Origin: an uncultured Mycoplasmatota bacterium
GTDB lineage: Bacteria; Bacillota_I; Bacilli_A; RF39; UBA660
Reading direction: 5' to 3'
DNA: 45,697 nucleotides
NCBI GenBank assembly: GCA_946494345.1
Contig: CAMMBX010000002.1
Location: 1-45,697 of the forward strand
Positions within the stretch are counted from its first letter, which is position 1, and every line of letters starts with the position of its first letter. The notes under the pieces were generated by a model. The model made no database searches and was not told the DNA's origin. It worked only from the letters and a program-made list of their open reading frames with translations. Of this stretch, positions 7,691-37,331 are shown piece after piece. Made by a program: the position numbers and the translations under genes.

Positions 7691-7719
7691 TTGAAAGAGC
7701 TAGGGTATTGTGTTACAAT
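7691..7719 (+). promoter_or_regulatory. Putative sigma-A promoter inside the polysaccharide locus
   Basis: TTGAAA (7691-7696), a 17-nt spacer, then TGT-TACAAT (extended -10, 7711-7719), located upstream of the GtrB-like gene. Confidence 0.45.
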
Positions 7720-7745
7720 TTAAGTGAAATGAGGAGAGAAGTATA

Positions 7746-9153: not shown

Positions 9154-9166
9154 GTGGTGATTAATA

Positions 9167-10468: not shown

Positions 10469-10489
10469 ATTTAGGGAAGGTGTATTTAT

Positions 10490-11431: not shown

Positions 11432-11520
11432 ATGTTAATAATAAATCAATCTTATCGATTGATGTTTAAAAAAAAACTTTTCTGTGGTATTATTAAAGTA
11501 TCTATAGAAAGGTTTTTATT

Positions 11521-12780: not shown

Positions 12781-13643
12781 GAAAGTTAGTTTTTGTTATT
12801 ATAAATTATAATGATTTTAATACTACTAAGAGATTACTTTATAATATAAAAGATTATAAAGTAATAGATAAGATCTATGTTGTTGATAATCATTCTACTG
12901 ATGAATCTTATTCAAAGTTAAAAAAATTAAAAATTAATAGATATGAAGTAATAGAAACACCAGTTAATAAAGGCTTTGCTTATGCCTTAAATGTAGGTGC
13001 TAAAAAGGCTATAGAAGAGTTTAATGATGTTGATATTATCTTTTCTAATGCTGATATAATAATTCATAGTAATGAAGATTTAGAAGATTTAAAAAAGACT
13101 TTAGATAAACGTGATGTAGGACTTGTCGCCCCTGTTGTTTATGAAAATGGTGGTTTAAATAGAGGCTGGAAGTTACCTAGTCCAAAAGAAGAAGTACTTG
13201 GTAATTTACCAGTTATAGGTAAAAGATTTAGTAAAAAATTACATTATAAAGAATCTCATTATAAAAGTGACTATAGTCAAGTAGATGTTATTTCTTTTTG
13301 TTTTTTTCTTATAAAAAGTGAAATCTTAGAAAAGATAAATTATTTTGATGAAGAAACTTTTCTTTACTATGAAGAAAATATTACAGCATCAAAACTTAAG
13401 AGGACTAAATATAAATTATTAATTGATAATAATGTAACAATTATTCATGATCATTCAGTTAGTGTTGATAAAAGTATAAATTATATAAATAAATTTAAAA
13501 TATTAAAGAATAGCCAGTTATATTTTGAGAGTAAATATAATAATGCTAGTAGTTTGGAAATACTTTTGTTAAAACTTACAATTAGATTAACACTGATGAC
13601 TTTATATGTTAGAATATTTATTAGAGGAGGTTTGAAGAAATGA
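12777..13643 (+). CDS. GT2 glycosyltransferase (possibly a rhamnosyltransferase)
   Basis: [10 protein letters not shown]...[13 protein letters not shown] motifs. ATGA overlaps on both sides indicate translational coupling with the rfbA operon. Confidence 0.8.
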
Positions 13644-14515
13644 AAGGAATAATCTTAGCAGGAGGTAGTGGAACGAGGCTTTATCCCTTAACAGAAGTTA
13701 CTAGTAAACAACTTATGCCTATTTATGATAAACCTATGATTTATTATCCTTTGTCAGTTTTAATGCAGGCAGAAATAAGAGATATACTAATAATTTCAAC
13801 GCCTAAAGATTTACCTAGATTTAAGGAATTGTTAGGTGATGGATCTAAGTTTGGTATTAGACTTTCCTATAAAGAACAGCCTAGTCCTGATGGACTTGCT
13901 CAGGCCTTTATTTTAGGAGAAGAATTTATTGGTAATGATACTTGTTGTATGGTTTTAGGAGATAATATTTTCTATGGACCAAATTTAAAAATAGAGTTAA
14001 TGAAAGCGAAAGAATATGCTAATAAAGGAATTTCTACTGTTTTTGGATATCATGTTTATGATCCTGAGAGATTTGGAGTTGTTGAATTTGATAAAGATGG
14101 TAAGGTTTTAAGTGTAGAAGAAAAACCAATAAATCCTAAAAGTAATTATGCTGTGACAGGAATTTATTTTTATGATAATACTGTAATTGAGAAAGCGAAA
14201 AGATTGAAACCATCTTCAAGAGGAGAGTTAGAAATAACTGATTTGAATAGGTTATATTTAGATGAATCTAAATTAAACGTTATTACTTTGAATGAAGGTT
14301 ATGGGTGGTTTGATACAGGAACATTTAAAAGCTTATTTGATGCAACTAATTTTGTAGCGACAATACAAGAACATCAAAATATTACTATTTGTTGTCCAGA
14401 AGAGATTGCCTATAAAAATGGTTGGCTAAAAAGAGAAGATGTTCTAAAACAAGCAGAGTTAATGAAAAAGAATACTTATGGAAAACATTTAATGGAAATT
14501 ATAGAGGAGAAATGA
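13640..14515 (+). CDS. rfbA: Glucose-1-phosphate thymidylyltransferase
   Basis: [18 protein letters not shown] signature, and 291 aa is the typical RmlA length. Confidence 0.95.
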
Positions 14516-14516
14516 T

Positions 14517-15089
14517 ATGAAAAGAATTGCAACTAATTTATTAGATTGTTATATATTAGAGCCCGATAAATTTGGGGATGAAAGGGGATACTTTTCACCA
14601 TATTATATAGAAGCTGATTTAAAAGAATTAGGTTTTCTTGGTGTAAAACAGGCCAATAGAAGTAAAAGTAGTAAAGGAGTAGTAAGAGGACTTCATTTTC
14701 AAGAAGATCCTATGTGTCAAGCGAAAATCGTTGAGGTAATTAAAGGTTCTGCAATTGATGTAGTAGTTGATATTAGAAAAGATTCAGAAACTTATGGAAA
14801 GTTTACAACAGTTAAATTGACTGAAGATAATAATAGACAATTATTTGTACCCCGTGGTTTTGCACATGGTTTTATATCATTAGAGGATGACACTATTTTT
14901 CAGTATTTAGTTGATAATGCTTATGCTCCTGATAAAGAAGGTGGTATTCTTTGGAATGATCCTGATCTTAAGATAAACTGGGAAGAAATGTTTAAAGAAA
15001 ATGGTATAACTAATCCTATTTTATCTGAAAAAGATGGAAAATATCCAAGATTTAAAGATTCTAAAGTATTATTTTTAAGGAGGAAATAA
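14517..15089 (+). CDS. rfbC: dTDP-4-dehydrorhamnose 3,5-epimerase
   Basis: FGDERGYF and RGLHFQ motifs, at 190 aa. Confidence 0.93.
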   Translation: MKRIATNLLDCYILEPDKFGDERGYFSPYYIEADLKELGFLGVKQANRSKSSKGVVRGLHFQEDPMCQAKIVEVIKGSAIDVVVDIRKDSETYGKFTTVKLTEDNNRQLFVPRGFAHGFISLEDDTIFQYLVDNAYAPDKEGGILWNDPDLKINWEEMFKENGITNPILSEKDGKYPRFKDSKVLFLRRK

Positions 15090-15976
15090 TGAAATATTTA
15101 ATTACAGGTTATAAAGGACAATTAGGCTATGATGTAAAAAGAGAATTATTAAAAAGAGGTGTAAGTGAAGAAGATATTCTTGCTATAGATAAAGATGAGA
15201 TGGATATTACTAATAAAGAAGAAGTAGAGATGGTTGTTAAAGGTTTTAATCCAAACGTTATCTTTCATTGTGCAGCTTTTACGGCAGTAGATAAAGCTGA
15301 AGATATGAGTGATGCTTGTTATGCTGTTAATGTTACTGGTACTAAAAATATAGTTGATGTATCAATTGAAACAAACTCTACTGTTATATATATGTCAACT
15401 GATTATGTTTTTGATGGTACTAAAGATGGCCTATATACAGAAGAAGATAATGTAAATCCTAAAAGTGTTTATGGTGAGACTAAGTTTTTAGGTGAAGAAG
15501 AAGTAAGACGTAATCCTAAACATTTTATTACAAGAATATCTTGGGTATTTGGAATTAATGGACATAACTTTATTAGAACAATGTTAAAATTATCAGAAAA
15601 TCATAATGAATTAAATGTGGTTAATGATCAAGTTGGTAGTCCTACTTATACTGTTGATCTTGCTAAAACATTAGTAGATATGGCAGGTAGTGATAAGTAT
15701 GGTACCTATAATGTTACTAATAGTGATTATTGTAGTTGGGCAGAGTTTGCTGATTTTATCTTTAAATCTAATGGAAAAGATGTTAATGTAAATAAAGTTA
15801 CAACAGAAGAATATTTAGAAATTACTGGTACAAAGCAAGCATATCGTCCTAGAAATTCTAAACTAGATAAAACAAAATTAGAAGAGAACTTTGGGTTGTT
15901 ACCAACATGGAAAGATGCAGTTCGTCGTTATAATATAGAACTTGAAGAAGAAAAGAAATTAGTAAAGAAAATATAA
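15089..15976 (+). CDS. rfbD: dTDP-4-dehydrorhamnose reductase
   Basis: N-terminal ITGYKGQLG Rossmann motif and STDYVFDG...YGETK catalytic motif, at 295 aa. Confidence 0.92.
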   Translation: MKYLITGYKGQLGYDVKRELLKRGVSEEDILAIDKDEMDITNKEEVEMVVKGFNPNVIFHCAAFTAVDKAEDMSDACYAVNVTGTKNIVDVSIETNSTVIYMSTDYVFDGTKDGLYTEEDNVNPKSVYGETKFLGEEEVRRNPKHFITRISWVFGINGHNFIRTMLKLSENHNELNVVNDQVGSPTYTVDLAKTLVDMAGSDKYGTYNVTNSDYCSWAEFADFIFKSNGKDVNVNKVTTEEYLEITGTKQAYRPRNSKLDKTKLEENFGLLPTWKDAVRRYNIELEEEKKLVKKI

Positions 15977-15993
15977 TACTTAAGGAGAATACT

Positions 15994-16890
15994 ATGCTTG
16001 AAGTTAAACATATTACAAAATATTATGGAAATAATAGGGCAGTTAATGATCTGTCCTTTACTGTTAAAGATGGAGAGATATTTGGTTTACTTGGAGAAAA
16101 TGGAGCGGGTAAGACTACTACATTTAGAATCATTATGGGACTTATTGATGCGAATAGTGGAGAAGTTTTACTTGATGGAGAAAAGATAGACTATAATCTA
16201 ACTGATAAAATTGGGTTTGTTACAGAAGAGAGAAGTCTTCTTACTAAACTTACTGTTTTAGAACAACTTAAATTTTATGGTGTTTTGAAAGGAATGGATG
16301 AGAGCTTAATTGAAAATGATATAGATAAATGGTTAGAAAAGTTTTCCATTTCTAGTTATAAAAATAGAAAGATTAAAGAACTATCTAAAGGTAATCAACA
16401 AAAAATTCAATTTATTTCTGCAATCATTAATCATCCTAAATTATTAATACTTGACGAGCCTTTTACTGGACTTGATCCTATTAATGTTAAAATGATGAAA
16501 GATGCTATTTATGATTTACAAAAAGAAGGTTGTTCAATTATTTTTTCATCTCATCAAATGGAATATATTGAAGACTTTTGTGAGAAGTTAGTTATTTTAG
16601 TAAAAGGAGAAGCAGTTGTAAGTGGTAACTTGAAAGATATTAAAGAAGACTTTGGTATTAAAAATATTATGTTGAGGGGAGATGATTTACCTCTTGATAA
16701 AATAAAAAAAGTTAAAGGTGTTTTAAGCGTTTCCAAAGTAAGAGGAGAAATAGAAGTGAAAATAGAAGATAAAGTGATCGCACCTAAGATCTTTTCCTTA
16801 GTAAAAAACTCTAATATTACTAAATATGATGTAGAAGAGCCAACACTTAATGAAATATTTATTGCGAAAGTAGGGGGTATTCATGAATAG
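15994..16890 (+). CDS. ABC transporter ATP-binding protein (NatA/YhaQ-like)
   Basis: Walker A GENGAGKTT, signature LSKGNQQK, Walker B LILDEP, plus a C-terminal accessory domain. Confidence 0.88.
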   Translation: MLEVKHITKYYGNNRAVNDLSFTVKDGEIFGLLGENGAGKTTTFRIIMGLIDANSGEVLLDGEKIDYNLTDKIGFVTEERSLLTKLTVLEQLKFYGVLKGMDESLIENDIDKWLEKFSISSYKNRKIKELSKGNQQKIQFISAIINHPKLLILDEPFTGLDPINVKMMKDAIYDLQKEGCSIIFSSHQMEYIEDFCEKLVILVKGEAVVSGNLKDIKEDFGIKNIMLRGDDLPLDKIKKVKGVLSVSKVRGEIEVKIEDKVIAPKIFSLVKNSNITKYDVEEPTLNEIFIAKVGGIHE

Positions 16891-18199
16891 GAAATTTCTT
16901 TATTTAACTAAAGTTAGTTTAAGAAAAAAGTTTAAGACTAAATGGTTTGTTATTACTAATATAATCCTTGCTGTAGCAATAATTCTTCTTTTAAACATTA
17001 ATTCTATAGTATCTTTTTTTGGAGGGGATTTTGATAGTAAGACTAATATAATTGTTGTAGATAATGGTACCGATAGTTATTCTTTATTTGAAAAGAATAT
17101 AGAAAGTTACGCTAGTACAATAAATTCTGATGAAGATGGTGTAAAATTAGCAGTTAAAAAGAGTAATAAAACTGTTGATGAATTAAAAGATGATTTACAA
17201 GATGATGAGATACTAGTAGAGTTAAATAGTGATAGTACAGAATACTTGAAAGCAAAGGTTACTTCTAATGAGAAAATAGATACTTTAACTTATCAAGTAT
17301 TATCTCAGAGTTTAAACTCTACTAAGACTACGATTGGTATGGCTATTAATAATATAGATGCTACTACGTTAAATAATATCTCTAGTCCTGTAACAATAGA
17401 TAGAGTAGTCTTGAATGAAGATAATAATGTCGATGAGAATGTGGGACTTATTATGAGCAGTGTCTTTCCAACAGTAATCTTACCATTTTTTATGTTAACT
17501 ATGATCTTAATTCAAATGGTAGGAGGAGAAATATGCGAAGAGAAGACTACTCGTAGTATGGAAATAATTATTTCTAATGTTTCTCCTAAACAACATTTAA
17601 TGTCTAAGATACTTGCTAGTAATATTTTTGTTATAGTTCAAGGAATGCTTTTAGTAGTTTATGCTGTTATTGGTCTTTTAATAAGTACTAATATGTTAAG
17701 CAGTGGTATGTCACTACCTAGTGAAGTTACATCTATCTTTGATAGTCTAGTAGCATCTGGTTTTATAGAGAAGTTAATCTATGTAATACCTTTAACCTTA
17801 ATCTTAATAGTTTTATCATTCCTTGCTTATTCCATTGTAGCAGGTATTCTTGCTTCTATGACTGTTAATATGGAAGACTTTAGTCAATTACAAACACCAT
17901 TAGTATTTCTTTCTTTAGGAGGTTATTACTTAGCGATGATGGCGGGTATGTTTAATGGTTCAGTTCTTATTAGAATACTTTCATATGTACCATTCTTATC
18001 ATCATTTGTTAGTCCTAGTTTATATATGATGGGAGAAATAGGTTTAGTTGATATAGTTATTTCTATTATTATATTAATTCTATTTATTTATTTGATACTT
18101 CATTTTGGAATAAAAGTATATAAAGTAGGAATACTTAATTATTCTAATGAAAAAGTTTGGAGTAAATTCTTTAAGGCTTTTAAAAATAAAGATGTATAA
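16883..18199 (+). CDS. ABC-2 family permease (NatB-like) with a large extracytoplasmic loop
   Basis: One N-terminal TM segment, a soluble loop of about 170 aa, then 5 TM segments. It overlaps the upstream NBD gene. Confidence 0.75.
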   Translation: MNRKFLYLTKVSLRKKFKTKWFVITNIILAVAIILLLNINSIVSFFGGDFDSKTNIIVVDNGTDSYSLFEKNIESYASTINSDEDGVKLAVKKSNKTVDELKDDLQDDEILVELNSDSTEYLKAKVTSNEKIDTLTYQVLSQSLNSTKTTIGMAINNIDATTLNNISSPVTIDRVVLNEDNNVDENVGLIMSSVFPTVILPFFMLTMILIQMVGGEICEEKTTRSMEIIISNVSPKQHLMSKILASNIFVIVQGMLLVVYAVIGLLISTNMLSSGMSLPSEVTSIFDSLVASGFIEKLIYVIPLTLILIVLSFLAYSIVAGILASMTVNMEDFSQLQTPLVFLSLGGYYLAMMAGMFNGSVLIRILSYVPFLSSFVSPSLYMMGEIGLVDIVISIIILILFIYLILHFGIKVYKVGILNYSNEKVWSKFFKAFKNKDV

Positions 18200-18261: not shown

Positions 18262-18278
18262 AAAAAAAGGTGATAAAA

Positions 18279-19472
18279 ATGTTAAAAAGAGAAACTTACT
18301 TGTCAAGAATTAGGGGATTTTACGATTCTAATTTAGTAAAAATTTTAGTAGGAATAAGAAGATGTGGTAAGTCTGTAATTCTTAATCAGATAGTAGAAGA
18401 AATAAAAGATAAAGGCGTTAATGAAGATCATATTATATATGTTAATTTTGAACTTGTAGAATTTGAAGAATTACAAGACTATAAAAAGCTAAATAAATAT
18501 ATTAAAGATAATATTAAAGATGATAAAATTTATTATGTATTTTTAGATGAGATACAAAGAGTTGAAAAATTTGAAACAGTTGTAAATTCATTACGAGCAT
18601 CTCTTTCTAATATAAGTATATTTATAACTGGTTCTAATAGTAAACTTCTTTCTAATGAACTTTCTACAGTTTTGTCAGGTAGGTATGTTCTATTTAATAT
18701 CTATCCTTTAAGTTATAAAGAATTCACGGAACTATCTTTAAAAGATCCTAAGAGTGAAGAAACATTTTGGAATTTTGTAAAGTGGGGAGGACTTCCAAAT
18801 AGAGTAGAGTTTATTGATGAAGTTAATATAAAAGATTATCTTCATAGTGTGTTTGATTCTATTATTCTAAGGGATGTAGTAGAACGACTAGGACTTAAAG
18901 ATATTGTTTTATTTAATTTGTTATTACAATATGTTGTTGATACAACAGGAAGAGAATTTTCTGCTGATAATGTTATAAAGTTTTTAAAAGCTGAAGGAAG
19001 AAGTGTTTCTACTGAAACTTTATATATTTATTTAGATGCTTTATGTAAAGCTTTAATAATTAATAAGATTTATAGATATGATATACATGGTAAGACAATA
19101 TTAAAAACATTAAATAAATATTATATGACTGACTTGGGAATAGCACAAATAAAGAATAATAATTTTGAGATTAATAAAAGTTTTGCAATAGAAAATGTTG
19201 TTTATAATGAATTATTAGAAAGAGGATATGATGTTTATATAGGAAAAACGAAAAAAGGTGAAATAGATTTTATTGCCACAAAAACTGATGAAAAAATATA
19301 TATTCAAGTTGCATATTTTTTAAATAGTGAAAAGGTAATATCTAGAGAGTTTGGGGCATTTAAAGAAATAAATGATGATGTTCCTAAATATGTTCTTTCA
19401 TTAGACAAAGATGATTTATCAAGAGATGGTATTATACATAGAAATATTATAGAATGGTTATTAGAAAAATAA
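18279..19472 (+). CDS. AAA-type ATPase with a C-terminal PD-(D/E)xK-like domain (AAA_14 + DUF4143 architecture)
   Basis: Walker A GIRRCGKS, Walker B VFLDEIQ, and C-terminal GEIDFIA...YIQV. ATG 18279 follows AAAGGTG; the track start at 18270 is a GTG inside the RBS. Confidence 0.75.
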   Translation: MLKRETYLSRIRGFYDSNLVKILVGIRRCGKSVILNQIVEEIKDKGVNEDHIIYVNFELVEFEELQDYKKLNKYIKDNIKDDKIYYVFLDEIQRVEKFETVVNSLRASLSNISIFITGSNSKLLSNELSTVLSGRYVLFNIYPLSYKEFTELSLKDPKSEETFWNFVKWGGLPNRVEFIDEVNIKDYLHSVFDSIILRDVVERLGLKDIVLFNLLLQYVVDTTGREFSADNVIKFLKAEGRSVSTETLYIYLDALCKALIINKIYRYDIHGKTILKTLNKYYMTDLGIAQIKNNNFEINKSFAIENVVYNELLERGYDVYIGKTKKGEIDFIATKTDEKIYIQVAYFLNSEKVISREFGAFKEINDDVPKYVLSLDKDDLSRDGIIHRNIIEWLLEK

Positions 19473-26621: not shown

Positions 26622-26674
26622 TGCTAAAAATGTAATTATATGTTAAAGTAATGGTAATAGAAGGAGGATTCATT

Positions 26675-27955
26675 ATGGGCTTAACAGAAAAAGGTTATAG
26701 AAGAAGATTAATAGATAGTAAGATAGATCGTTATTTAGATACTTTTGGAGCGATTTTAATTGAAGGACCTAAATGGTGTGGAAAAACATGGACAGCTTTA
26801 AATCATGCAGAAAGTGTATCTTTTGTTACAGAAAATTCTACTAAAAGACTAGCTTTAATAAATCCTAAAAATATTTTTTCTGATAAAAGACCTCAGCTTA
26901 TAGATGAATGGCAAATTGTTCCCTCAATATGGGATTCGGTAAGACATGAATGTGATAGGGGTAGAGGTCCTGGCAATTTTATTTTAACTGGTTCTACAAC
27001 ACTTAGAAAAGAAATAGCTGACAGGCAAATTTATCATTCTGGGGCTGGAAGGATTGCTAGACTTAAAATGGAAACTATGAGTTTATATGAATCAGGTGAT
27101 TCTACTGGTGATGTATCTATAACTGATATGTTGGAGAATAAAGATATAAGCAAAAACATAGGAGAAGTAGAATTAAAATATCTTGCTAATTTAATTATAA
27201 GAGGTGGATGGCCAGCGAGTCTAAAAGCTAAGGAGGAAAATTATCCTTTAATACCAAAAAGTTATATTGACTCAATTTTAAATGTAGAGTTAGATGATGA
27301 TGAAAAAGCAAGAGATAAAAATAAAATGAATATGTTATTAAAATCTTTAGCAAGAAATGAATCAACTACCTGTAGTAATAAGACCCTTATAAAAGATATC
27401 GAAGAATATGAAACTGGTAATGATATATTAACAAGTAGAACTACACTTCTTGATTATTTGGATTTCTTAGAAAGACTTCATTTAATAGATAATCAAGAGT
27501 CATATAGTTCAAATTATCGTTCTCCTGAAAGAGTAGGTAAGTCAGTGAAAAGACATTTAGTTGATCCATCATTAGCTTGTTCCTTATTAAATCTTAATAT
27601 AGATAAGTTAATGAAAGATTTAAACACTTTCGGGTTTCTTTTTGAAGCACTTGTAGAAAGAGACTTAAGAATATATATGGATTACTTAGATGGAAAACTA
27701 TATCATTTTAGAGATAATGTCAGTGGCTTAGAAGTGGATTCAATATTAGAATTTGAAGATGGAGAATATGCTGCAGTTGAAATAAAATTAGGTTACAATG
27801 AAGTAGATGATGCAATTAAGAATTTAAAAGACTTTTATAATAATATGATTAAAAAGCCTAAATTTATGTGCGTTATTGTTGGCGTTTTAGAATCAGCTTA
27901 TAAAGATCCGGATACATCTATTTATGTAGTACCAATAACTGCTTTAAAACCATAG
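26675..27955 (+). CDS. AAA-type ATPase with a C-terminal PD-(D/E)xK-like domain (second, divergent DUF4143-type paralogue)
   Basis: Walker A GPKWCGKT, Walker B LIDEWQ, and C-terminal LEVDSIL...AVEIK. ATG 26675 sits 5-6 nt after GAAGGAGGA. Confidence 0.75.
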   Translation: MGLTEKGYRRRLIDSKIDRYLDTFGAILIEGPKWCGKTWTALNHAESVSFVTENSTKRLALINPKNIFSDKRPQLIDEWQIVPSIWDSVRHECDRGRGPGNFILTGSTTLRKEIADRQIYHSGAGRIARLKMETMSLYESGDSTGDVSITDMLENKDISKNIGEVELKYLANLIIRGGWPASLKAKEENYPLIPKSYIDSILNVELDDDEKARDKNKMNMLLKSLARNESTTCSNKTLIKDIEEYETGNDILTSRTTLLDYLDFLERLHLIDNQESYSSNYRSPERVGKSVKRHLVDPSLACSLLNLNIDKLMKDLNTFGFLFEALVERDLRIYMDYLDGKLYHFRDNVSGLEVDSILEFEDGEYAAVEIKLGYNEVDDAIKNLKDFYNNMIKKPKFMCVIVGVLESAYKDPDTSIYVVPITALKP

Positions 27956-27986: not shown

Positions 27987-30017
27987 TTAATATGTAGTAC
28001 TTGGGGTACCAGGAACAACTTCAGTTATATCCGGGTCTTTTTTAGGAGGATCAACTTCAGGTAAATTTTCTTCTTCTTTTTCTTTATCTTGATCTGTTTT
28101 TATTTCCTCTGTATCATCTTCTTCATTAGTAGGAGGTGTTACAGAATTGTTATTACCTTGACTTGGTGTTGTATTATCTTCAGGTTCATCGTATCCACTA
28201 CCTGATAATGTTAACACAACACTGCCACTTATTAAATCTATTCTTTTATTAGCAGGGTAACTTTGGGCTACTACATAACCACCATTACCTTTGAAAGTAA
28301 CATTAATTCCATGAGCATTAGCATAACTTTGGGCTGCTGCCTCACTATCACCAGTAAAGTCAGGTAATAAGTCATATGTAAAAGCAGTTTTGTAAGGACC
28401 AGTACCTGTTACTGTTTTTTCATAGTCTTCATCATTAATAGAGAATGAGAATTCTTTAATCATGTCAGGCTCTTCTTCTTCAAGATTTATTTTCATTGCC
28501 TTTATAATATCATCTCTACTTGCAGTATTAGGTACATAGTCCCATAAAACCATTCTACTTCGCTCATCATAAATCATTTGACCTGTACCATCTAAATATA
28601 ATTGTTCAATATTAATAAGGTCAGCATCATCTTTTTGTAGAGCATTATTCATTATATCTTTAGCAATGTCATAGAATGATAATATTTGTTGTTCTGTAAA
28701 GTTAGTATCTAAATTATTAGTAACAGTATTTAAAACATCCATTACTTGATTAATACTTTTCATATCTTTAACTTTATTTAATATTCCTTGAATAACTAAT
28801 TGTTGATTTAAACCTCTGTCTAAATCCCCAGCGGCTAGTTGTTTTCTGTTTCTAGCAAGTACTAAAGCCTGTTCACCATTTAAGGTTTGAAGTCCTGCAC
28901 TAATACAAACTTCTCCTTCACGACTAGAGTTATCAGTACATAAATCTTGAGGAACTTCAACAGTAATACCACCTAAGGTATCAACTAAACTAACTAAACC
29001 TTTAAAATTAATCTTAGCATAATAATCAATCGTAACATCAAAATAATTTTCAATCGTATCCATCATGCAGTCAGTACCATAGGCTGCAGCATGGGTTATT
29101 TTATTTTCAGGAGTACCACTCCAACAAGCGATAGGTACATAACTATCTCTTGGAATACTTAACATTGTAGCATTTAAAGTGTTAGGGTTAAAAGTAATTA
29201 AAATTAAACTATCACCATTAGCAACTGTATTTTTAGATAATCCTTCTTCTGCTGAGTCAACTCCCATTAAAAGAATAGTAAATGGTTCTGTTACATCTTT
29301 ACCAGCAGATGTTTTTTCTCTATCACTAGTATTAGATTTTTTCATTTCTTTTTCTTCAGTTAAAATGATTTTTGTATCACTATCAATATTTTCATAAGCT
29401 TCCATACTAGTGAACATTGAAGGGTAATCAGTTGGAACAAATAGGGCATCTACTTCACCATCATATAAATCAGCCATACCTGAAAAGTAATCATCATATT
29501 CTACTATTTCATTGTTTTTATCCAAATTATTTTTAGAAATTACTTCATTAGGTATTATATTTCCTTCTGGTGATGATTCATCAGAAAGAATACCAATTGA
29601 GTTATCCGATAGATCATCAATGCTCTCAATCTCGCTATCAGAACTTACAATTAAACTACTAGAGTAAGTAACATAGTCTCTATTAATACTTGAAAGAGTA
29701 CCATAAGCATACATTATTAGACCACTGATTGCACAGTTTATAATCAAATATATAATTAATAATGTAGTTAGAAGTCTTACCTTTTTTTCTTTGTGAAGTC
29801 TTTTGCTTCTTACTTTAAAGATAATAATTAAGTCAAATACTACAAAAATACCAATTACTATATATCTTATTACTTCTTCTACAGGACCTAGTCGTAAGAT
29901 GTTATAAATAGCAAAGATATTAGTTAATATAACAATAATACTTAATATTGCTAACCAAAGTCGGCCTTTTTTATTTTTCTTTTCTTTTGTCTCTTTATTC
30001 TCTTTATTCTTTCTCAT
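27987..30017 (-). CDS. LCP (LytR-CpsA-Psr) family cell-wall polymer ligase with a C-terminal PASTA-like domain and an acidic/Pro-rich tail
   Basis: N-terminal TM segments. LCP motifs FTILLMGVDS, GDSLILITFNP, LSIPRDSYV and LARNR. The C-terminal LPDFTGDSEAAAQSYANAHGINVTF...VVAQSYPANKRIDLISGSVVLTLSG resembles PASTA. ATG 30017 follows GGAGG by 8 nt. Confidence 0.85.
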   Translation of the reverse strand: MRKNKENKETKEKKNKKGRLWLAILSIIVILTNIFAIYNILRLGPVEEVIRYIVIGIFVVFDLIIIFKVRSKRLHKEKKVRLLTTLLIIYLIINCAISGLIMYAYGTLSSINRDYVTYSSSLIVSSDSEIESIDDLSDNSIGILSDESSPEGNIIPNEVISKNNLDKNNEIVEYDDYFSGMADLYDGEVDALFVPTDYPSMFTSMEAYENIDSDTKIILTEEKEMKKSNTSDREKTSAGKDVTEPFTILLMGVDSAEEGLSKNTVANGDSLILITFNPNTLNATMLSIPRDSYVPIACWSGTPENKITHAAAYGTDCMMDTIENYFDVTIDYYAKINFKGLVSLVDTLGGITVEVPQDLCTDNSSREGEVCISAGLQTLNGEQALVLARNRKQLAAGDLDRGLNQQLVIQGILNKVKDMKSINQVMDVLNTVTNNLDTNFTEQQILSFYDIAKDIMNNALQKDDADLINIEQLYLDGTGQMIYDERSRMVLWDYVPNTASRDDIIKAMKINLEEEEPDMIKEFSFSINDEDYEKTVTGTGPYKTAFTYDLLPDFTGDSEAAAQSYANAHGINVTFKGNGGYVVAQSYPANKRIDLISGSVVLTLSGSGYDEPEDNTTPSQGNNNSVTPPTNEEDDTEEIKTDQDKEKEEENLPEVDPPKKDPDITEVVPGTPSTTY

Positions 30018-30200
30018 TAAATTAACCTCCAACGTTTAAAACATAAAACTATACCTTATCATTATAGACTATTATCAGAATCATTTCAACTCTAGTCTTT
30101 TTGTTTGAACTGTCAAGTTGACGATATATCTATATTTTATAGAGACAGTTTGTCGAAGTTTCTGTTATAATGTAAATAGGAGAATAGGAGTTGATGGGGT

Positions 30201-32030
30201 ATGAAAAAAATAATGTATGTAACACTTATCTTAATTATGTTATTTACCTTTATTCCTAATGTATCGGCATCAACTAGTAGTTATATCGTTTTAAATGAAA
30301 ATAAATACTTTAGGGAAGAACCTGGTGGTGACTTAATTATGGGAGTTACTGATGGGGTGTTACTTGCAGGGGAAAAGGTAGATGTTATTTCTAAAGATGG
30401 TAAAAGTGGCTATGGCTGTAAAAATAATTGGTACAAAGTTAAATATAATGATTTAGAAGGATATATTTGTTCATCTAATCAGGCAATTATTGAAGTAGCT
30501 GATGTTGATATTAATGGCAGCTTTGAACAAGAAATGTTAAATAAGGGGTTTAAAGAAAGTTATTTACCTTATTTAAAGGCAATGCACGAGAAACATCCTA
30601 ATTGGATCTTTACACCAGTATCTATTGGTATTTCTTTTAATGATGCAGTTACTAATGAAAGTTATGGAGAAATTAGTTTAGTTGATGGATCTGATGAGAC
30701 CCTTAGAAGTAAGGAATGGCCTTATTATCAAAATGGTGTTTATCAACAAATAGAACCAGGATGGTATGTTGCTAGTAGGGATACTGTGTCTTATTACTTA
30801 GATCCTAGAAATTTCTTATCAGAAGAGTATATATTTATGTTTGAAAATTTAAAATATAATTCAAATATTCAAACAGAGGATGCAGTAAGAGGAGTTACTA
30901 GTGGTACTTTTCTAAATACTAATGAATACTTAAATATTTTAATGAAAACTGCCGAAACTTATAATGTCAGTCCAGTTTATATAGCTAGTAGGATTAGACA
31001 AGAGAAAGGTAGTAATGATAGTATTTCAACAACAGGTGGTAGTTTTACTTTTACAGTTGATAATAATTGTTTAAATAATTTAGGTTATGCAAGTAATCCA
31101 TCTACTTGGAATGCTCTTAATTCTTGTGGTAATGGTAAAACTTATAGTGGCATTTATAACTATTTTAATATCGGGGCATATAGTTCTTATCAATCCCCAC
31201 AAATTAGAGGATTAATTTGGGCTAATGGTGGTTATGATGCTTCTGTTACTACTTATAGAAGGCCATGGACATCAAAAGAAGAAGCTATTATGGGTGGTGT
31301 TGAATATATTGCTAGTAAATATATAGATGCTAATCAAAATACTTTGTATTATCAAAAATTTAATGTAGCACCTTCTGCAGTTTATCCTACATATACACAT
31401 CAATATATGACTAATATTAGAGCTGTGTCTAATGAAGCATATAGTATTTATAAGAGTTATAGAGATAATAATCTTTTAGGTAATACTTATGAATTTCTAA
31501 TTCCTGTCTATGAAAATATGCCTAATGATAATGAAGTGATATTACCTGATGATGAAGAAAAGGAAGAGACAATCGTTACTACTCCTGCTATTGATGTTAA
31601 TACGGGAGTTGTAGGAGCAGGATTTAAGATTGATGGAGATGTTATTTCTAATATTTCATTTAATACTAATATTGATACAATTAATAGTATTTTAAGTAGT
31701 GTTAATGCAAATTTAAAAGTTATAGATTATAAAGATAGATATGGTGTTAAAGCTAGTGGTAATGTTGGTACAGGAGATACTTTGGTAATTAGTAATGGTA
31801 ATACTAGTGTATCTTATAAAGTTGTTATTTATGGTGATAATAATGGAGATGGTAAGACTAGTATTGTAGATTTACTTAGAGTTCAAAAAGATATTTTAGG
31901 AAGTAGTAATTTATCTACTTATGATAGGGAAGCTAGTGATACTAATAAAGATGGTAAAGTTGATGTTATAGATTTACTTAGAGTTCAAAAACAAATACTT
32001 GGTAATAATGTAATAGAACAGGAGGGCTAG
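30201..32030 (+). CDS. Secreted peptidoglycan hydrolase-like protein: signal peptide, SH3b-like domain, glucosaminidase (GH73-like) domain and C-terminal dockerin
   Basis: Signal peptide ending VSA|ST, SH3b-like NNWYKVKYNDLEGYI, and glucosaminidase-like ASRIRQEKG...YNYFNIGA...YYQKFN. Two dockerin F-hand segments: GDNNGDGKTSIVDLLRVQKDILG and DTNKDGKVDVIDLLRVQKQILG. Confidence 0.8.
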   Translation: MKKIMYVTLILIMLFTFIPNVSASTSSYIVLNENKYFREEPGGDLIMGVTDGVLLAGEKVDVISKDGKSGYGCKNNWYKVKYNDLEGYICSSNQAIIEVADVDINGSFEQEMLNKGFKESYLPYLKAMHEKHPNWIFTPVSIGISFNDAVTNESYGEISLVDGSDETLRSKEWPYYQNGVYQQIEPGWYVASRDTVSYYLDPRNFLSEEYIFMFENLKYNSNIQTEDAVRGVTSGTFLNTNEYLNILMKTAETYNVSPVYIASRIRQEKGSNDSISTTGGSFTFTVDNNCLNNLGYASNPSTWNALNSCGNGKTYSGIYNYFNIGAYSSYQSPQIRGLIWANGGYDASVTTYRRPWTSKEEAIMGGVEYIASKYIDANQNTLYYQKFNVAPSAVYPTYTHQYMTNIRAVSNEAYSIYKSYRDNNLLGNTYEFLIPVYENMPNDNEVILPDDEEKEETIVTTPAIDVNTGVVGAGFKIDGDVISNISFNTNIDTINSILSSVNANLKVIDYKDRYGVKASGNVGTGDTLVISNGNTSVSYKVVIYGDNNGDGKTSIVDLLRVQKDILGSSNLSTYDREASDTNKDGKVDVIDLLRVQKQILGNNVIEQEG

Positions 32031-32033
32031 ACA

Positions 32034-33368
32034 GTGATTAATTTTAAGAGAATATTATTTATATTAGGACTTAGCTTCCTTTTCTTTCTGCCTTTTAAGG
32101 TAGATGCTGCTTCTATAAGCATCGCAGGTACTACTTCTACAGGTACAGTTGGAGGAAATATTACAGTAAGAGTTACAATTAATGAGCCTACAGGTTTAGG
32201 AAGTTGGGAATATAGTTTGGATTATGACAGTAGTAAGTTACAACTTTTAAGTGGTTCTACTCATGTTGTTGGTTATGTTGATGGACAAGGAGAAACGAGT
32301 AGGAGTTATACTTATAGTTTTAGAGTTAAAGGAACAGGCAGTACCACTATTTCAGTTGTAAATACTGCTATTGCTAGTTGGGATGAAGTAGTTAGTAGTC
32401 CTACTGATAGTACAACTATTAATTTAGTAAGTAGAGAAGAAGTAGAGACTAGTTATAGTGATGATAATAATCTTTCTAGTTTAGAGGTAGAAGGCTATAG
32501 TCTAAGTCCTGAGTTTAATAGTGGTACTACTTCATATAGTGTAAATGTAGATAGTGATGTAACTAGTGTTAAAGTAAATGCAACTGCAAGTGATAGTAAA
32601 GCTAAAGTCAGTGGGGCAGGAGAAGTAGAAGTAAGTGAAGGTGCTAATACGATTAATGTGGTAGTAGAAGCAGAAAATGGTGCTACTAAAACTTATAAAA
32701 TAGTTGTTAATGTTAAAGAGAAAGATCCTATTAATGTTAAAGTTAATAAAGAAAACTTAAGTGTAGTTAGAGATAAAGAAAGTCTAAATGATTTAATTAA
32801 AGATTATTTTGTAGAAACTACAGTTAATATTGATGAAGAAGAAGTTCCTGCTTATACTATAGAAGCATTAAATCTTACTTTATTAGCTTTAAGAGACGAT
32901 GATGGTAAAATTAAGTTTTATATATATGATGATGGAAATTTTACTTTATATCAAGAATTAGGTAGTGATACTCTTACTGTTCATCTTTTAGATAATGGTA
33001 AATATCCTGATAATTATAAAAAATATACAGTTAAAATAGATGGAGAAGAGTATACTGTTTATAAGATAAATAAAGATAGTGATTACTATTTAGTTTATGG
33101 AGAAAATGTCGAAACTGGTAAAAAAGGACTATATTTGTATGATAGTGTTGATAATACTATTCAAAGATATTATAATGAAGAAGTTAATAGTTTAAATGAT
33201 AGATTAAGGATAAATTCATTTATTATTATTGGACTTATTAGTTTAATTGTTATTATTTTGATAATTTTCTTAATTACATTACATACTAAGAATAATAGTA
33301 AAAGAAAAAAGAAAAAGGAAATTAAAAAAAGATTAAAACAAGAAAAAGAAGATTTTTTAAAGGATTAG
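32034..33368 (+). CDS. Membrane-anchored scaffoldin-like protein: signal peptide, cohesin-like domain, cadherin-like beta-sandwich, C-terminal TM segment and Lys-rich tail
   Basis: Cohesin-like GGNITVRVTINEPTGLGSWEYSLDYDSSKLQLL, and cadherin-like LSSLEVEGYSLSPEFNSGTTSYSVNV...NGATKTYKIVVNV. The TM segment FIIIGLISLIVIILIIFLITL is followed by KRKKKKEIKK. GTG start. Confidence 0.7.
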   Translation: MINFKRILFILGLSFLFFLPFKVDAASISIAGTTSTGTVGGNITVRVTINEPTGLGSWEYSLDYDSSKLQLLSGSTHVVGYVDGQGETSRSYTYSFRVKGTGSTTISVVNTAIASWDEVVSSPTDSTTINLVSREEVETSYSDDNNLSSLEVEGYSLSPEFNSGTTSYSVNVDSDVTSVKVNATASDSKAKVSGAGEVEVSEGANTINVVVEAENGATKTYKIVVNVKEKDPINVKVNKENLSVVRDKESLNDLIKDYFVETTVNIDEEEVPAYTIEALNLTLLALRDDDGKIKFYIYDDGNFTLYQELGSDTLTVHLLDNGKYPDNYKKYTVKIDGEEYTVYKINKDSDYYLVYGENVETGKKGLYLYDSVDNTIQRYYNEEVNSLNDRLRINSFIIIGLISLIVIILIIFLITLHTKNNSKRKKKKEIKKRLKQEKEDFLKD

Positions 33369-33378: not shown

Positions 33379-34026
33379 ATGGAAGTAAAACATCATAATA
33401 AACATCTAGGAATAATGATATTTATTGGTTTTTTATTAATTATTATTGGTATTATTTCTTATATTATTATTAATTATAACAATGACCAAGCTGAAGTTAG
33501 AAAGAGAATGGACGTTGTTGTTGATACTTATAAAACATTTAGAAGTGATGTAGATGCCTTTAATACTATTAGAGATAATATATATACTGAGGTTATGCAA
33601 GATATGTATTATCAGACTTTAAAGGATAATGATACTAGATTTAAAGAACTTTATAATAGTTATAAAGATAGCTTAGAAAAAGTAGATGAAGATTATAAAA
33701 AAATCGAAGATAAATGTATAAATGTTTTACATCCTAAAGCTGATGTTAATAATAAGTGTGAAGCGATGGTTGTTGGTTATGAAGAAGTAGTTAATACTTA
33801 TATTAGTGATGTAAATAGTTATAATAACCTTATTAAGTCTTATAATAAATGGTTAGAAACTAATAATAGTAGTGATCCCAAATTAGAAGAAATTGAGATA
33901 GATAGAGATTATTTAGATGTAAATGGAGATAGAGAATATGCAGGTAGGAAGGAAATAGAAACAGAGATAACTGATGAGACGATGAAATCTAATGAGAATG
34001 GGGAAGAGTCTAGTGAAGAAAGTTGA
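33379..34026 (+). CDS. Membrane-anchored protein with a helical, acidic ectodomain; function unknown
   Basis: A single N-terminal TM segment followed by charged, helix-prone sequence. The family was not recognised. Confidence 0.5.
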   Translation: MEVKHHNKHLGIMIFIGFLLIIIGIISYIIINYNNDQAEVRKRMDVVVDTYKTFRSDVDAFNTIRDNIYTEVMQDMYYQTLKDNDTRFKELYNSYKDSLEKVDEDYKKIEDKCINVLHPKADVNNKCEAMVVGYEEVVNTYISDVNSYNNLIKSYNKWLETNNSSDPKLEEIEIDRDYLDVNGDREYAGRKEIETEITDETMKSNENGEESSEES

Positions 34027-35098
34027 TTTAGATAAGACAATTTTAATGCCTAGTATTGCTAGTGAAATAAAAAAAGAGAAAAGAAAAGAAAAGAAGATTA
34101 TTTCCAAAGTTATAATAGCTTTGTTTATAATAGGAAGTTCGTTTTCTTTGTTTCTTTTTTATGGACCAATAGATGGGTTTAGGAACTTTTGGATTACTTC
34201 AGCGATGACTTCGATGTCACATCAATATCTTGCTACTTGGTTTTATAATGATGAAGTTATTAATGAAGTACTATCTAATAATAATATAATTGAAGTAGAT
34301 GAAAATACTAATCCTGATTTAATTAATTTTAAAGACTATGATGCTGATACTAAGATATATAAGAATGAATATGAAAAAGAGATTTTAACAAAAGATCCTG
34401 GTAATGATTTATATAAAGTTATTGAAGTTAATGGTAGTGGTTATCAAGGTTATTTAGTAGCGATATATGACCCTTCAAGAGTTTCTATTGCGACAACGGC
34501 TTATCTTGGTAAAAGAGGAGAAGCGATTACTACAGTTGCTAAAAGAGAAAATGCTATAATTGCTATTAATGCTGGTGGTTTTTATGACCCTGATTGGAAT
34601 AGTAATGGGGCTCTACCACATGGTACAGTTATTAAAGATGGAGAAATTGTAAGTGATTTTGATGATGCTAAGATGGGTGGAGGCTTTGTTGGATTTACTA
34701 AAGATAATAAACTAGTACTTGGTAAGATGACTAAGGAAGAGGCACTTGCTATGGGGATTAGAGATGCTATTGAGTTTGGACCTTTCTTAATCGTAAATGG
34801 TAAGAGTAGTTTTGTTAAAGGTAATGGTGGTTGGGGTATTGCTCCAAGAACTGCTATTGGTCAAAGAGAAGATGGTATAGTCTTATTCTTAGTTATTAAT
34901 GGACGTCTTGCTACTTCAATCGGTGCTGATATGGGAGATTTAACAGAGATAATGGAAAACTATGGTGCTGTTAATGCTGCTAATATGGATGGAGGTAGCT
35001 CTAGTGCTTTAGTAATTAATAATGAGATTATTAATACACCAGTTGCCGGTGGAGAGAATGGCCTTAGAGATATACCAACATTTTGGATAGTTAAGTAA
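33992..35098 (+). CDS. Phosphodiester glycosidase family protein (DUF2233/NAGPA-like), membrane-anchored
   Basis: N-terminal TM segment and C-terminal motifs INAGGF...FGPFLIVNGK...PRTAIGQ...NMDGGSSS. The start is uncertain among ATG 33992, ATG 33998 and GTG 34013, all overlapping the upstream gene. Confidence 0.75.
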   Translation: MRMGKSLVKKVDLDKTILMPSIASEIKKEKRKEKKIISKVIIALFIIGSSFSLFLFYGPIDGFRNFWITSAMTSMSHQYLATWFYNDEVINEVLSNNNIIEVDENTNPDLINFKDYDADTKIYKNEYEKEILTKDPGNDLYKVIEVNGSGYQGYLVAIYDPSRVSIATTAYLGKRGEAITTVAKRENAIIAINAGGFYDPDWNSNGALPHGTVIKDGEIVSDFDDAKMGGGFVGFTKDNKLVLGKMTKEEALAMGIRDAIEFGPFLIVNGKSSFVKGNGGWGIAPRTAIGQREDGIVLFLVINGRLATSIGADMGDLTEIMENYGAVNAANMDGGSSSALVINNEIINTPVAGGENGLRDIPTFWIVK

Positions 35099-35449: not shown

Positions 35450-36937
35450 ATGGAACGAGCATATTGTTGTATTGATTTAAAGAGTTTTTATGCATCAGTA
35501 GAATGTGTTGAAAGAGGACTTAATCCCTTAAAAACTAATCTTGTTGTTGCTGATAAATCTAGGACAGAAAAGACGATATGTTTAGCGGTAAGCCCTTCAT
35601 TAAAACAATATGGTATTCCTGGAAGAGCGAGGCTTTTTGAAGTGTTAAGTAAGGTTAAAGAAATTAATAAAATAAGAAGAAAAGCTAATGGCTATAAAAA
35701 GTTTAGTGGTAAAGCAGTTAATGATGATATCTTAAAGAAAGATAAGACTAAAGAATTAGATTTAATTATCGCTCCTCCTAGAATGGCTCATTATATTGAT
35801 TATTCAGCTAAAATATATAATATCTATTTAAAGTACATTGCTAAAGAAGATATATTTGTTTATTCTATTGATGAAGTCTTTATGGATATAACTAATTACT
35901 TAAAGTACTATAAACTATCTCCTAAAGACTTAATCACAAAAATAATTAAAGATGTTTATGATACAACTGGTATTACAGCGACAGGGGGAATTGGTACTAA
36001 TTTATTTCTTGCTAAAGTTGCTATGGATGTAGTAGCAAAACATACTGAAGCTAATAAGTTTGGAGTAAGAATTGCCGAACTTAATGAAATGTCTTATAGA
36101 AAAATGTTATGGAGTCATGTGCCTATTACTGATATTTGGCGAGTAGGTAAGGGTATTTCTAAAAGATTAGAGAAGTACGGTATGTATACAATGGGTGATG
36201 TTGCCAGATGTTCTATTAATAATGAAGACTTACTATATAAATTATTTGGAGTTAATGCTGAGCTTTTAATAGACCATGCTTGGGGTTATGAGCCTTGTAC
36301 AATAGAGTCTATTAAAAACTATAAACCACTTGCTAAAAGCATTAGTAGTGGTCAAGTTTTACAAAGTCCATATTCATATGATAAAGCTAAGTTAATAGTA
36401 AGAGAAATGGCAGAGTTGCTAGCTTTAGACCTCGTCTCTAAAAAATTAGTAGCAGAACAGTTAGTATTAACTATTGGTTATGATATAGAAAATGTTACTG
36501 ATGATTATAATGGGAGTGTTACAATAGATTATTATGGACGGGCTATACCAAAACACGCTCATGGAACTATTAACTTAGATTATAAAACATCTTCATCTAA
36601 AATAATTACTACAGCGATGATTAAGTTATATGATAGGATTATAAATCCTAAGTTGTCAGTTAGAAGAGTTACTATGGCTGCTACAAAACTAGCTAGTGAA
36701 GATGAAGAAATAGGTAAAGTTAGGTATAGACAGTTAGATTTATTTTCTAGTTTGGAAGGACAAGATAATAAGTTAGCTTATAATAGAGAAGTTTTAAAAG
36801 AAGAAAACAATCTTCAAAATGCCATGTTAAATATAAAAGAAAAATATGGTAAAAATGCTATTTTAAAAGGTATGGATTTAGAAGATGAGGCAACAACAAT
36901 TGATAGGAATAGGCAAATAGGAGGACATCATGAATAA
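35450..36937 (+). CDS. Y-family (translesion) DNA polymerase, UmuC/UvrX-like
   Basis: N-terminal CIDLKSFYASVE motif, SIDEVFMD catalytic acidic motif, and 495 aa. It is coupled by overlap to a YolD-like gene. Confidence 0.9.
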   Translation: MERAYCCIDLKSFYASVECVERGLNPLKTNLVVADKSRTEKTICLAVSPSLKQYGIPGRARLFEVLSKVKEINKIRRKANGYKKFSGKAVNDDILKKDKTKELDLIIAPPRMAHYIDYSAKIYNIYLKYIAKEDIFVYSIDEVFMDITNYLKYYKLSPKDLITKIIKDVYDTTGITATGGIGTNLFLAKVAMDVVAKHTEANKFGVRIAELNEMSYRKMLWSHVPITDIWRVGKGISKRLEKYGMYTMGDVARCSINNEDLLYKLFGVNAELLIDHAWGYEPCTIESIKNYKPLAKSISSGQVLQSPYSYDKAKLIVREMAELLALDLVSKKLVAEQLVLTIGYDIENVTDDYNGSVTIDYYGRAIPKHAHGTINLDYKTSSSKIITTAMIKLYDRIINPKLSVRRVTMAATKLASEDEEIGKVRYRQLDLFSSLEGQDNKLAYNREVLKEENNLQNAMLNIKEKYGKNAILKGMDLEDEATTIDRNRQIGGHHE

Positions 36938-37331
36938 TTATGACGATATTATAAATATGCCTCATCATGTATCTAAAATAAGAAAGCCTATGTCTTTACA
37001 AAATAGATCTGCACAGTTTGCTCCTTTTTCTGCTTTAACAGGGTATGATGAGAAGATAAGAGAAGTCGCAAGGGAAACATCTAAGAAAATAGAATTAGAT
37101 GAAGGTATAAAATTAATGCTAAATGAGAAATTATGTCTTATAAAAAATGATGTTAGATTAAGACCTAAAGTAACAATTACTTATTTTGTTAGAGATACAA
37201 GGAAAGAAAACAGAGGTATATATAAAACTATAACTAGCAATGTTAAAGTAGTTGATGAAGTGTATAAAAGAATAATCTTAATAGATAATACTATAATATC
37301 TTTCGATAATATAATTGATATTAAGTTTTGA
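36930..37331 (+). CDS. YolD-like protein (accessory partner of Gram-positive Y-family polymerases)
   Basis: 133 aa, with FAPFSALTGYDE near the N-terminus and a C-terminal beta-rich region ending FDNIIDI. It overlaps the polymerase gene by 8 nt. Confidence 0.75.
   Translation: MNNYDDIINMPHHVSKIRKPMSLQNRSAQFAPFSALTGYDEKIREVARETSKKIELDEGIKLMLNEKLCLIKNDVRLRPKVTITYFVRDTRKENRGIYKTITSNVKVVDEVYKRIILIDNTIISFDNIIDIKF

Follow-up and report, generated by a model that had tools for sequence, protein, structure and literature searches.

Gene layout at the locus

This study deals with two adjacent genes in a 45,697-nucleotide stretch of DNA (contig CAMMBX010000002.1 of assembly GCA_946494345.1, in its entirety referred to as the window), the first of which codes for a predicted secreted peptidoglycan hydrolase ending in a dockerin and the second for a predicted membrane anchor starting with a cohesin-like module. 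The hydrolase gene (30201..32030; all features lie on the plus strand unless stated otherwise) specifies 609 amino acids, arranged as signal peptide, SH3b-like module, glucosaminidase of the glycoside hydrolase family 73 (GH73) type, beta linker domain and dockerin. The anchor gene (32034..33368) specifies 444 amino acids comprising signal peptide, cohesin, Cadherin-like domain, third beta domain, transmembrane helix and basic tail. Both open reading frames (ORFs) are present at the positions given by an initial annotation of the same DNA. The window is low in G+C (~27%), and its nearest relatives are metagenome-assembled genomes (MAGs) that bear the label 'uncultured Bacilli/Tenericutes' or the name of Candidatus Onthousia, a chicken-gut genus placed in Bacilli incertae sedis. 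The hosts are uncultured small-genome gut Bacilli, consisting of Candidatus Onthousia and its relatives. In public records, both proteins are named only 'hypothetical protein' or 'cadherin-like beta sandwich domain-containing protein'.

The stop codon of the hydrolase gene and the GTG start codon of the anchor gene are separated by 3 nucleotides, and both genes are in one reading frame. An AGGAGG ribosome-binding site of the anchor gene (32019..32024) is located 9 nucleotides ahead of this GTG and, because it sits within the final codons of the hydrolase gene, the arrangement suggests that translation of hydrolase and anchor may be coupled. The anchor gene is followed by two further co-directional genes, the first after a 10-nucleotide gap and the second with a 35-nucleotide overlap, and a scan between 29900 and 35600, which spans all four co-directional genes, found no terminator-like sites. 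In the 168 nucleotides between the hydrolase gene and its divergent neighbor lies a promoter-like site (30142..30171; GAGACA, 18 nucleotides, TG-TATAAT) with a weak match to the consensus; since the underlying scan yielded 43 sites against 33.9 expected in AT-rich DNA, it has to be considered uninformative.

The dockerin of the hydrolase

At its C-terminus, the hydrolase carries a type I dockerin (residues 544-600, 31830..32000), which was detected with Pfam Dockerin_1 (PF00404; E = 1.9e-11, 44.4 bits against a cut-off of 22.9, full 57-position model covered) as well as by solved dockerins in a PDB search. It is composed of two 22-residue F-hand segments, DNNGDGKTSIVD and DTNKDGKVDVID, both of which read exactly as quoted in the initial annotation, where the duplicated F-hand dockerin had already been recognized. 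The spacing of the segments amounts to 34 residues in 36/36 proteins examined. The Asp/Asn calcium-ligand pattern of F-hands at loop positions 1, 3, 5, and 12 is present, with D546, D550, D557, D580, D584, and D591 as the calcium ligands; all six Asp residues are at least 95% conserved, and the same applies to a Gln-Lys pair found on both dockerin helices. Judged from these residues, the predicted calcium-binding dockerin is intact and of the canonical type I.

At the DNA level, the same region appears as a direct repeat (31834..32007) with 72-nucleotide copies at 31834-31905 and 31936-32007 that are 76% identical. Within these copies lies an identical core of 23 nucleotides, at ~31867 and ~31969, corresponding to the near-identical short repeat reported previously. 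The DNA repeat simply reflects that this region encodes the two F-hand segments. Two other proteins retrieved with the window dockerin (P0241 and P0243) contain 6-8 tandem Dockerin_1 repeats that are ~30-37% identical to the window dockerin, in an architecture unrelated to the hydrolase-anchor cassette.

The cohesin-like module and the architecture of the anchor

The anchor protein starts with a signal peptide (residues 1-25, 32034..32108) followed by an invariant Ala25-Ala26. Next to it lies a compact module of nine beta strands (residues 26-135, 32109..32438), to which structure models and a family profile assign a cohesin identity. A search of the PDB with the single anchor sequence (phmmer) gave nothing relevant, so that the cohesin is seen only by family profile and structure models. 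For the former, an alignment of 19 homologs with 40-83% identity was used. Eight of the 19 family members match Pfam Cohesin (PF00963; best E = 1.2e-5), and when the family profile was compared with the PDB, 14 out of 16 matches were cohesins (best 3l8q, E = 1.5e-4), all of them located at residues 24-140.

These observations are in line with the structure models. An AlphaFold2 model of the full anchor (predicted local distance difference test, pLDDT, 84) consists of the signal-peptide helix, a nine-stranded domain (27-132), the Cadherin-like domain, an all-beta domain (234-378), and a long helix (381-443), and its best Foldseek matches are two cohesin structures of C. perfringens. Modelled separately, the cohesin domain (residues 25-139) again shows nine strands, at a pLDDT of 93.5 and a predicted template modelling score (pTM) of 0.82. 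Foldseek ranks 1-6 for this domain against the PDB are all cohesins, namely five C. perfringens GH84C/GH33 non-cellulosomal cohesins (TMq 0.68-0.78) and, as the sixth, the OlpC cohesin of C. thermocellum, while rank 8 is a non-cellulosomal Archaeoglobus cohesin with 21% identity. Cohesins account for 31 of the 50 best matches; the remaining ones are other beta sandwiches, e.g., TRAP-beta and complement MG domains. According to profile and models, the N-terminal domain of the anchor has a predicted cohesin fold, in agreement with the cohesin-like beta-sandwich of the initial annotation.

The cohesin is followed by a Cadherin-like beta sandwich (PF12733; residues 147-226, 32472..32711), which is well above its cut-off in the window protein (E = 3.4e-12, 47.1 bits vs. 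24.2) and was found in all 19 members of the anchor family. Then comes a membrane-proximal all-beta domain of ~150 residues (residues 233-378, 32730..33167), which the initial annotation did not mention. It carries a conserved YGENVETG motif, as part of a YGENVETG...Y.YD pattern present in every anchor ortholog, and yielded no family match in Pfam or NCBIfam. A single transmembrane helix (residues 396-416, 33219..33281) was read from the sequence and lies within the modelled helix 381-443. It precedes a Lys/Arg-rich cytoplasmic tail (residues 417-444, 33282..33365), also read from the sequence, that fits an N-out, C-in topology. Signal peptide, cadherin-like domain, C-terminal transmembrane helix and Lys-rich tail had all been noticed before and were recovered here. 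Taken together, the models describe the anchor as a predicted type I membrane protein whose cohesin sits at the far end of a stalk of beta domains.

The catalytic part of the hydrolase

The hydrolase carries a Sec signal peptide (residues 1-23, VSA/S, 30201..30269; read from the sequence), with Ala23 being at least 95% conserved among orthologs. This signal peptide contains no lipobox cysteine, and the hydrolase is therefore predicted to be a soluble secreted protein. The subsequent SH3b-like module (residues 52-92, 30354..30476) was matched by Pfam SH3_3 (PF08239) with 26.4 bits, just under the cut-off of 27, whereas many orthologs exceed this value (50.7 bits for P0272 and 56.8 bits for the protein of locus L088). 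The SH3b-like module named in the initial annotation is accordingly clear in many orthologs and borderline in the window protein.

The GH73-type N-acetylglucosaminidase core (~residues 111-440, 30531..31520) was delimited from PDB relatives and conserved residues. In the PDB sequence search, the C. perfringens autolysin Acp (5wqw, E = 9.9e-9), Atl of S. aureus (6fxo, E = 1.4e-7), and AtlE (4pi7, E = 6.4e-6) were retrieved, with matches spanning residues 247-437. Pfam Glucosaminidase (PF01832) gave no match in the window hydrolase, although it does match variant heads in the same cassette (P0389 and the protein upstream of the L164 anchor); the relationship to 5wqw, AtlA, and AtlE nevertheless bears out the glucosaminidase-like module proposed earlier. 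Glu268 aligns with the catalytic general-acid Glu of the E-T-G motif in 5wqw and AtlE and is invariant in 75/75 full-length orthologs. Tyr402 of an HQY motif, which stands for the conserved Tyr in the YATD-like motif of GH73 enzymes, is present in 74 of these 75 sequences, across which a YNxFNIGA motif (residues 319-326) is conserved as well. All this describes a soluble secreted GH73 enzyme with intact predicted catalytic residues.

The NCBIfam model for SagB, which this database names 'peptidoglycan release complex glucosaminidase', also detected the hydrolase (NF052642; E = 5e-9), yet with 35.8 bits against a family cut-off of 425 the protein was rejected as a SagB ortholog and is a distant GH73 relative only. 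An assignment as prophage endolysin was rejected in view of the Sec signal peptide, the chromosomal wall-synthesis context and the lack of phage genes nearby.

Between the GH73 core and the dockerin, comparison of orthologs delimits a linker beta domain without family match (residues 441-540, 31521..31820). In distant hydrolase orthologs (P0261, P0262, P0272; L102 1062-2996; loci L046-L081), this linker is replaced by 1-3 Cadherin-like modules, which are of the same type as the module in the anchor stalk.

Conservation of the gene pair and exchange of the catalytic head

A scan of one genome per species yielded 79 loci, which together with two metagenome contigs resulted in a set of 81. In 79 of them, the dockerin segment is located directly upstream of the cohesin segment with a gap of 75-100 nucleotides, the other two being truncated contigs. 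A second, independent scan of metagenome contigs, seeded with distant anchors, provided 75 anchors with an upstream ORF, and 72 of these ORFs have a clean double F-hand at the C-terminus. As for the other three, the ORF in L164 contains a Dockerin_1 domain with a degenerate second segment, one is partial, and the one in L131 has no dockerin. The adjacency of dockerin and anchor is hence kept in ~150 loci, down to ~33% anchor identity. With family hidden Markov models (HMMs), the 45.7-kb window was found to hold a single ORF of each kind, dockerin and cohesin, and ~160 loci with 1.45 Mb of flanking sequence gave no second copy of either at any locus. The conserved unit is the two-gene pair. In one MAG (STF2_109), two hydrolase-anchor cassettes occur in the same genome, at L070 and L080.

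The distribution of the dockerin was examined by searching 1.84 billion representative proteins exhaustively with the window dockerin (73 residues). Single C-terminal dockerins sharing at least 50% identity with it were taken as its subtype; 52 proteins of this kind, plus fragments, were recovered, and nearly all bear a GH73 domain. Two proteins carry other heads, represented by loci L082, L083, and L084 (6001-9050): P0298 combines the dockerin with Peptidase_S8, and P0389 combines it with Glucosaminidase and Amidase_3. At the subtilase-dockerin gene of L084, an anchor ortholog follows 8 nucleotides downstream, complete with signal peptide, cohesin-like motif, Cadherin-like domain, the same C-domain motif, transmembrane helix and basic tail. 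The amidase-dockerin gene is followed by a truncated gene with signal peptide and cohesin-like N-terminus. Because the catalytic head changes while the adjacency of dockerin and cohesin persists, the selected relationship appears to be the one of dockerin with cohesin.

An interpretation of the pair as component of a cellulosome, amylosome or mucinolysome was rejected given the single-cohesin anchor, one dockerin per locus and no carbohydrate-binding module (CBM) or cellulase.

Co-divergence of dockerin and cohesin

Among the 36 non-redundant proteins examined, the two dockerin segments of the distant subset are more similar within a protein (identity 0.75) than between proteins (0.57-0.585), a difference reached by none of 5000 permutations. 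When the recognition helix carries a substitution, both segments of a protein often share it, as with DLQKIQKHILN, which occurs twice in L064, or DLLKVQKNILG, which occurs twice in L054. As far as sequences can indicate, this is the pattern expected of a symmetric dockerin in which both binding orientations are preserved; the dual-binding-mode criterion for dockerins has been discussed elsewhere (PMC13487519).

In a distance-correlation test with 110 non-redundant gene pairs, the cohesin is the domain whose distances agree most closely with those of the dockerin (r = 0.895), compared to 0.847 for GH73 and 0.873 for SH3, which reside on the same polypeptide as the dockerin. Given all other domains, the partial correlation between dockerin and cohesin is 0.445, which 0/1000 permutations reached and which is similar to the values for adjacent domain pairs within one protein (0.49-0.52). 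Partial correlations are far lower for dockerin and Cadherin-like domain (0.04), GH73 and cohesin (0.05), and GH73 and Cadherin-like domain (0.06). This co-divergence is supportive of, but not decisive for, an interaction between the two predicted modules.

Genomic neighborhood

Divergently to the hydrolase gene lies a gene for an LCP-family glycopolymer ligase with a PASTA domain (27987..30032, minus strand). The two co-directional genes downstream of the anchor encode a 215-amino-acid single-pass membrane protein (33379..34026) and an NAGPA-type phosphodiester glycosidase with an N-terminal transmembrane segment (33992..35098, E = 2e-43), the latter being the last gene of the run. The true start codon of the NAGPA gene may be located further downstream. 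The 215-amino-acid protein gene and the NAGPA gene are confined to the near clade and always co-occur, being present in 37 of the 67 loci whose flanks were long enough. In 46/66 loci, an LCP gene lies at a distance of up to 5 kb, at varying positions, and the five-gene arrangement is kept only where the anchor is at least ~45% identical. The initial annotation had proposed a coordinated wall-remodelling cluster; the flanking genes are as it described them, whereas their linkage to the cassette holds for the near clade only.

Further upstream (59-18199), the window contains a rhamnose-type, ABC-transporter-dependent wall-polysaccharide cluster with RmlA, RmlC, and RmlD, several GT2 glycosyltransferases, a UDP-glucose dehydrogenase, an O-antigen-ligase-like protein and two ABC-2 exporter pairs. 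This cluster also holds large membrane proteins with DUF7657/DUF7654 and DUF6020. For the near clade, this gene context makes it plausible that the cassette might be coordinated with the attachment of wall glycopolymers.

Several other features of the window were recorded. Paralogous genes for AAA_14 + DUF4143 ATPases lie at 18270-19472 and 26651-27955, i.e., at most 8 kb apart. Between 20829 and 24063, a minus-strand gene for a T2SSE-family secretion ATPase is oriented divergently from one for a 630-residue DUF6273 protein. At 35450-37331, a Y-family DNA polymerase gene (IMS, IMS_C) overlaps a 133-codon ORF by 8 nucleotides. The product of this ORF had no Pfam match and, by eye, looks like the small partner proteins often found beside Y-family polymerases.

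Proposed function of the pair and alternative explanations

Considering these observations, we regard it as probable that hydrolase and anchor form a dedicated non-cellulosomal cohesin-dockerin pair, by which an autolysin is docked in a calcium-dependent manner on a membrane stalk and acts on the cell's own wall. The hydrolase would be exported via Sec as a soluble enzyme equipped with an SH3b-like peptidoglycan-binding module and a symmetric dockerin. The anchor would be inserted by its transmembrane helix, presenting the cohesin at the distal tip of a stalk made up of the Cadherin-like and the third beta domain. Calcium-dependent binding of the dockerin to the cohesin, possibly in either of two orientations, would then keep the enzyme at a constant distance from the membrane, placing it in the cell's own wall or immediately below, where its cleavage of glycan strands may serve growth or turnover of the wall or the separation of daughter cells. 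The tethering interpretation of the initial annotation is thereby supported as far as computation allows, with binding itself inferred from sequence comparisons and models. Its notion that the membrane anchor takes the place of wall-binding modules was found to apply in part: the membrane anchor is present, while the enzyme bears an SH3b-like module of its own.

Several observations weigh against this proposal. The window anchor has no match to Pfam Cohesin at E ≤ 1, and its cohesin is unusually compact, with ~107 residues compared to 130-170 in solved cohesins. The partial correlation between SH3 and cohesin also reaches 0.37, so that the one between dockerin and cohesin may partly reflect shared fast evolution. 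At the residue level, mutual information with average product correction (MI-APC) between dockerin and cohesin, calculated for the 110 non-redundant pairs, has a top value of 0.49 and does not exceed the controls (0.50 for dockerin and Cadherin-like domain, 0.68 for GH73 and cohesin). Furthermore, the assignment of the cell's own wall, and not that of competitors, as substrate is deduced from topology and gene context.

The missing Pfam match, the covariation at control level and the TRAP-beta, complement MG and other beta-sandwich domains among the Foldseek matches would all fit a situation in which the two proteins do not bind each other at all. The dockerin would then be a calcium-stabilized module with another ligand, i.e., a wall polymer or a cohesin elsewhere, the N-terminal domain of the anchor a generic immunoglobulin-like spacer or adhesin, and the adjacency of the genes a consequence of a shared role in the envelope. 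We consider this unlikely, since the adjacency extends over ~150 loci to ~33% anchor identity and persists even with a replaced catalytic head, the paired helices of the dockerin change together, as a symmetric protein-binding surface would be expected to do, divergence of the dockerin follows that of the cohesin more closely than that of the catalytic domain in the same protein, and the six best structural matches are all cohesins.

If the pair does bind, it might also serve as an offensive surface lytic device, a minimal 'lyticome', directed against the walls of neighboring bacteria. Dockerin-bearing lysozymes and D-Ala-D-Ala peptidases of rumen cellulosome producers have been interpreted as weapons in competition (PMC6487960, PMC6403190), and the same dockerin subtype occurs on a secreted subtilase, which is no obvious housekeeping wall enzyme. 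The architecture of the anchor speaks for another target. The anchor is embedded in the membrane by a C-terminal transmembrane helix, and its stalk, only three small beta domains long, would not carry the enzyme beyond the producer's own wall. The hydrolase is thus expected within or just below this wall, which makes the wall its probable substrate. In addition, the cassette is single-copy and near-universal in the lineage, in the near clade it adjoins wall-synthesis genes (LCP, rhamnose polysaccharide cluster), and no immunity gene is evident. An offensive role therefore seems rather improbable.

Membrane proteins are known to control peptidoglycan hydrolases, with FtsEX acting on CwlO or PcsB and SpdC on SagB as established examples. 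Against this background, the idea that the anchor is mainly a regulator or latch, which sequesters or switches off the bound hydrolase until a signal arrives or calcium changes, can draw on its conserved ectodomain (233-378) and conserved cytoplasmic tail, but appears quite doubtful for a protein whose cytoplasmic part is a short basic tail without any recognizable signaling or ATPase-coupling domain, and in view of the cohesin-dockerin pairs known so far, which act as passive high-affinity tethers.

Returning to the docking of an autolysin on a membrane stalk, the exchange of heads invites a broader and more tentative reading, which we put forward as a possibility of limited likelihood. The cassette may represent a modular plug-in system for surface display in wall-bearing, genome-reduced gut Bacilli, in which a transmembrane cohesin stalk replaces LysM, choline-binding, SLH or sortase-based attachment and serves as a ruler for the height at which the cell's main autolysin cuts, and in which heads (GH73, GH73-amidase, subtilase) are swapped while the socket stays unchanged.

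Comparison with known systems and implications

The component parts and the general principle of this arrangement are already known. Non-cellulosomal cohesin-dockerin pairs are established from enzyme complexes of C. perfringens and from an Archaeoglobus pair. The C. perfringens GH84C/GH33 cohesins (2w1n, 2jh2, 2vo8, 2ozn), which are the best structural matches to the anchor cohesin, likewise function outside plant cell-wall degradation, although sequence identity is only 11-17%. They are situated inside large secreted enzymes and link enzymes to each other, whereas here a single cohesin resides on a non-catalytic membrane anchor and has a peptidoglycan hydrolase as its client. Similar in gene organization is the operon for ClcC and ClcD of Cellulosilyticum lentocellum, likewise a two-gene unit of one cohesin protein and one dockerin enzyme, for which the heterodimer was shown experimentally in 2026 (PMC13487519). 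That system consists of a GH5 cellulase with an asymmetric dockerin and a cohesin protein whose CBM targets cellulose, in contrast to the GH73 muramidase-family glucosaminidase, symmetric dockerin and transmembrane anchor predicted here.

Dockerin-bearing peptidoglycan hydrolases are not unprecedented either. Lysozymes and other cell-wall hydrolases with dockerins occur in ruminococcal cellulosomes, a review having coined the term 'lyticome' for such enzymes (PMC6403190, PMC6487960), and a cohesin-dockerin protein of R. flavefaciens carries an NlpC/P60-like module (PMC3573020). The likeness lies in the fusion of peptidoglycan-degrading catalytic modules to dockerins. The ruminococcal enzymes, however, dock on scaffoldins with multiple cohesins in cellulolytic bacteria and are regarded as directed against other cells, while the host of the window is not a cellulosome producer, its cohesin is single, gene-adjacent and membrane-anchored, and its enzyme belongs to GH73. 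Cellulosome anchors (SdbA, OlpB, Orf2p; ScaE) share with the window anchor that a cohesin on a surface protein captures a dockerin partner (PMC5817068). Known anchors of this kind are attached by SLH modules (SdbA, OlpB, Orf2p) or by sortase (ScaE) and hold scaffoldins (PMC5817068), in contrast to the C-terminal transmembrane helix of the window anchor, which appears to hold one enzyme directly.

Membrane-partnered autolysins (SagB-SpdC; FtsEX-CwlO, FtsEX-PcsB) resemble the proposed pair in that a dedicated membrane protein keeps a peptidoglycan hydrolase at the membrane, and SagB is a GH73 relative as well; their interaction modules are unrelated, with neither cohesin nor dockerin. What differs here is the autolysin-type GH73 client, the dedicated transmembrane-anchored single-cohesin stalk, the non-cellulosomal hosts and the near-universal occurrence of the pair across a large group of gut Bacilli. 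Full-text literature searches did not find this arrangement described, while an earlier survey may list a similar architecture.

How potentially lethal autolysins are positioned and restrained is a central question of Gram-positive wall biology, for which wall-binding repeats and membrane-complex partners are the known solutions. If the proposed docking is correct, a cohesin-dockerin tether would be a further and structurally simple way to hold autolysins. The cohesin-dockerin toolkit would in this case gain a ~107-residue cohesin, the symmetric dockerin that matches it and naturally occurring variants with exchanged heads, all of potential use for engineered surface display. The tether itself would occur in a large group of uncultured Bacilli from the human and animal gut.

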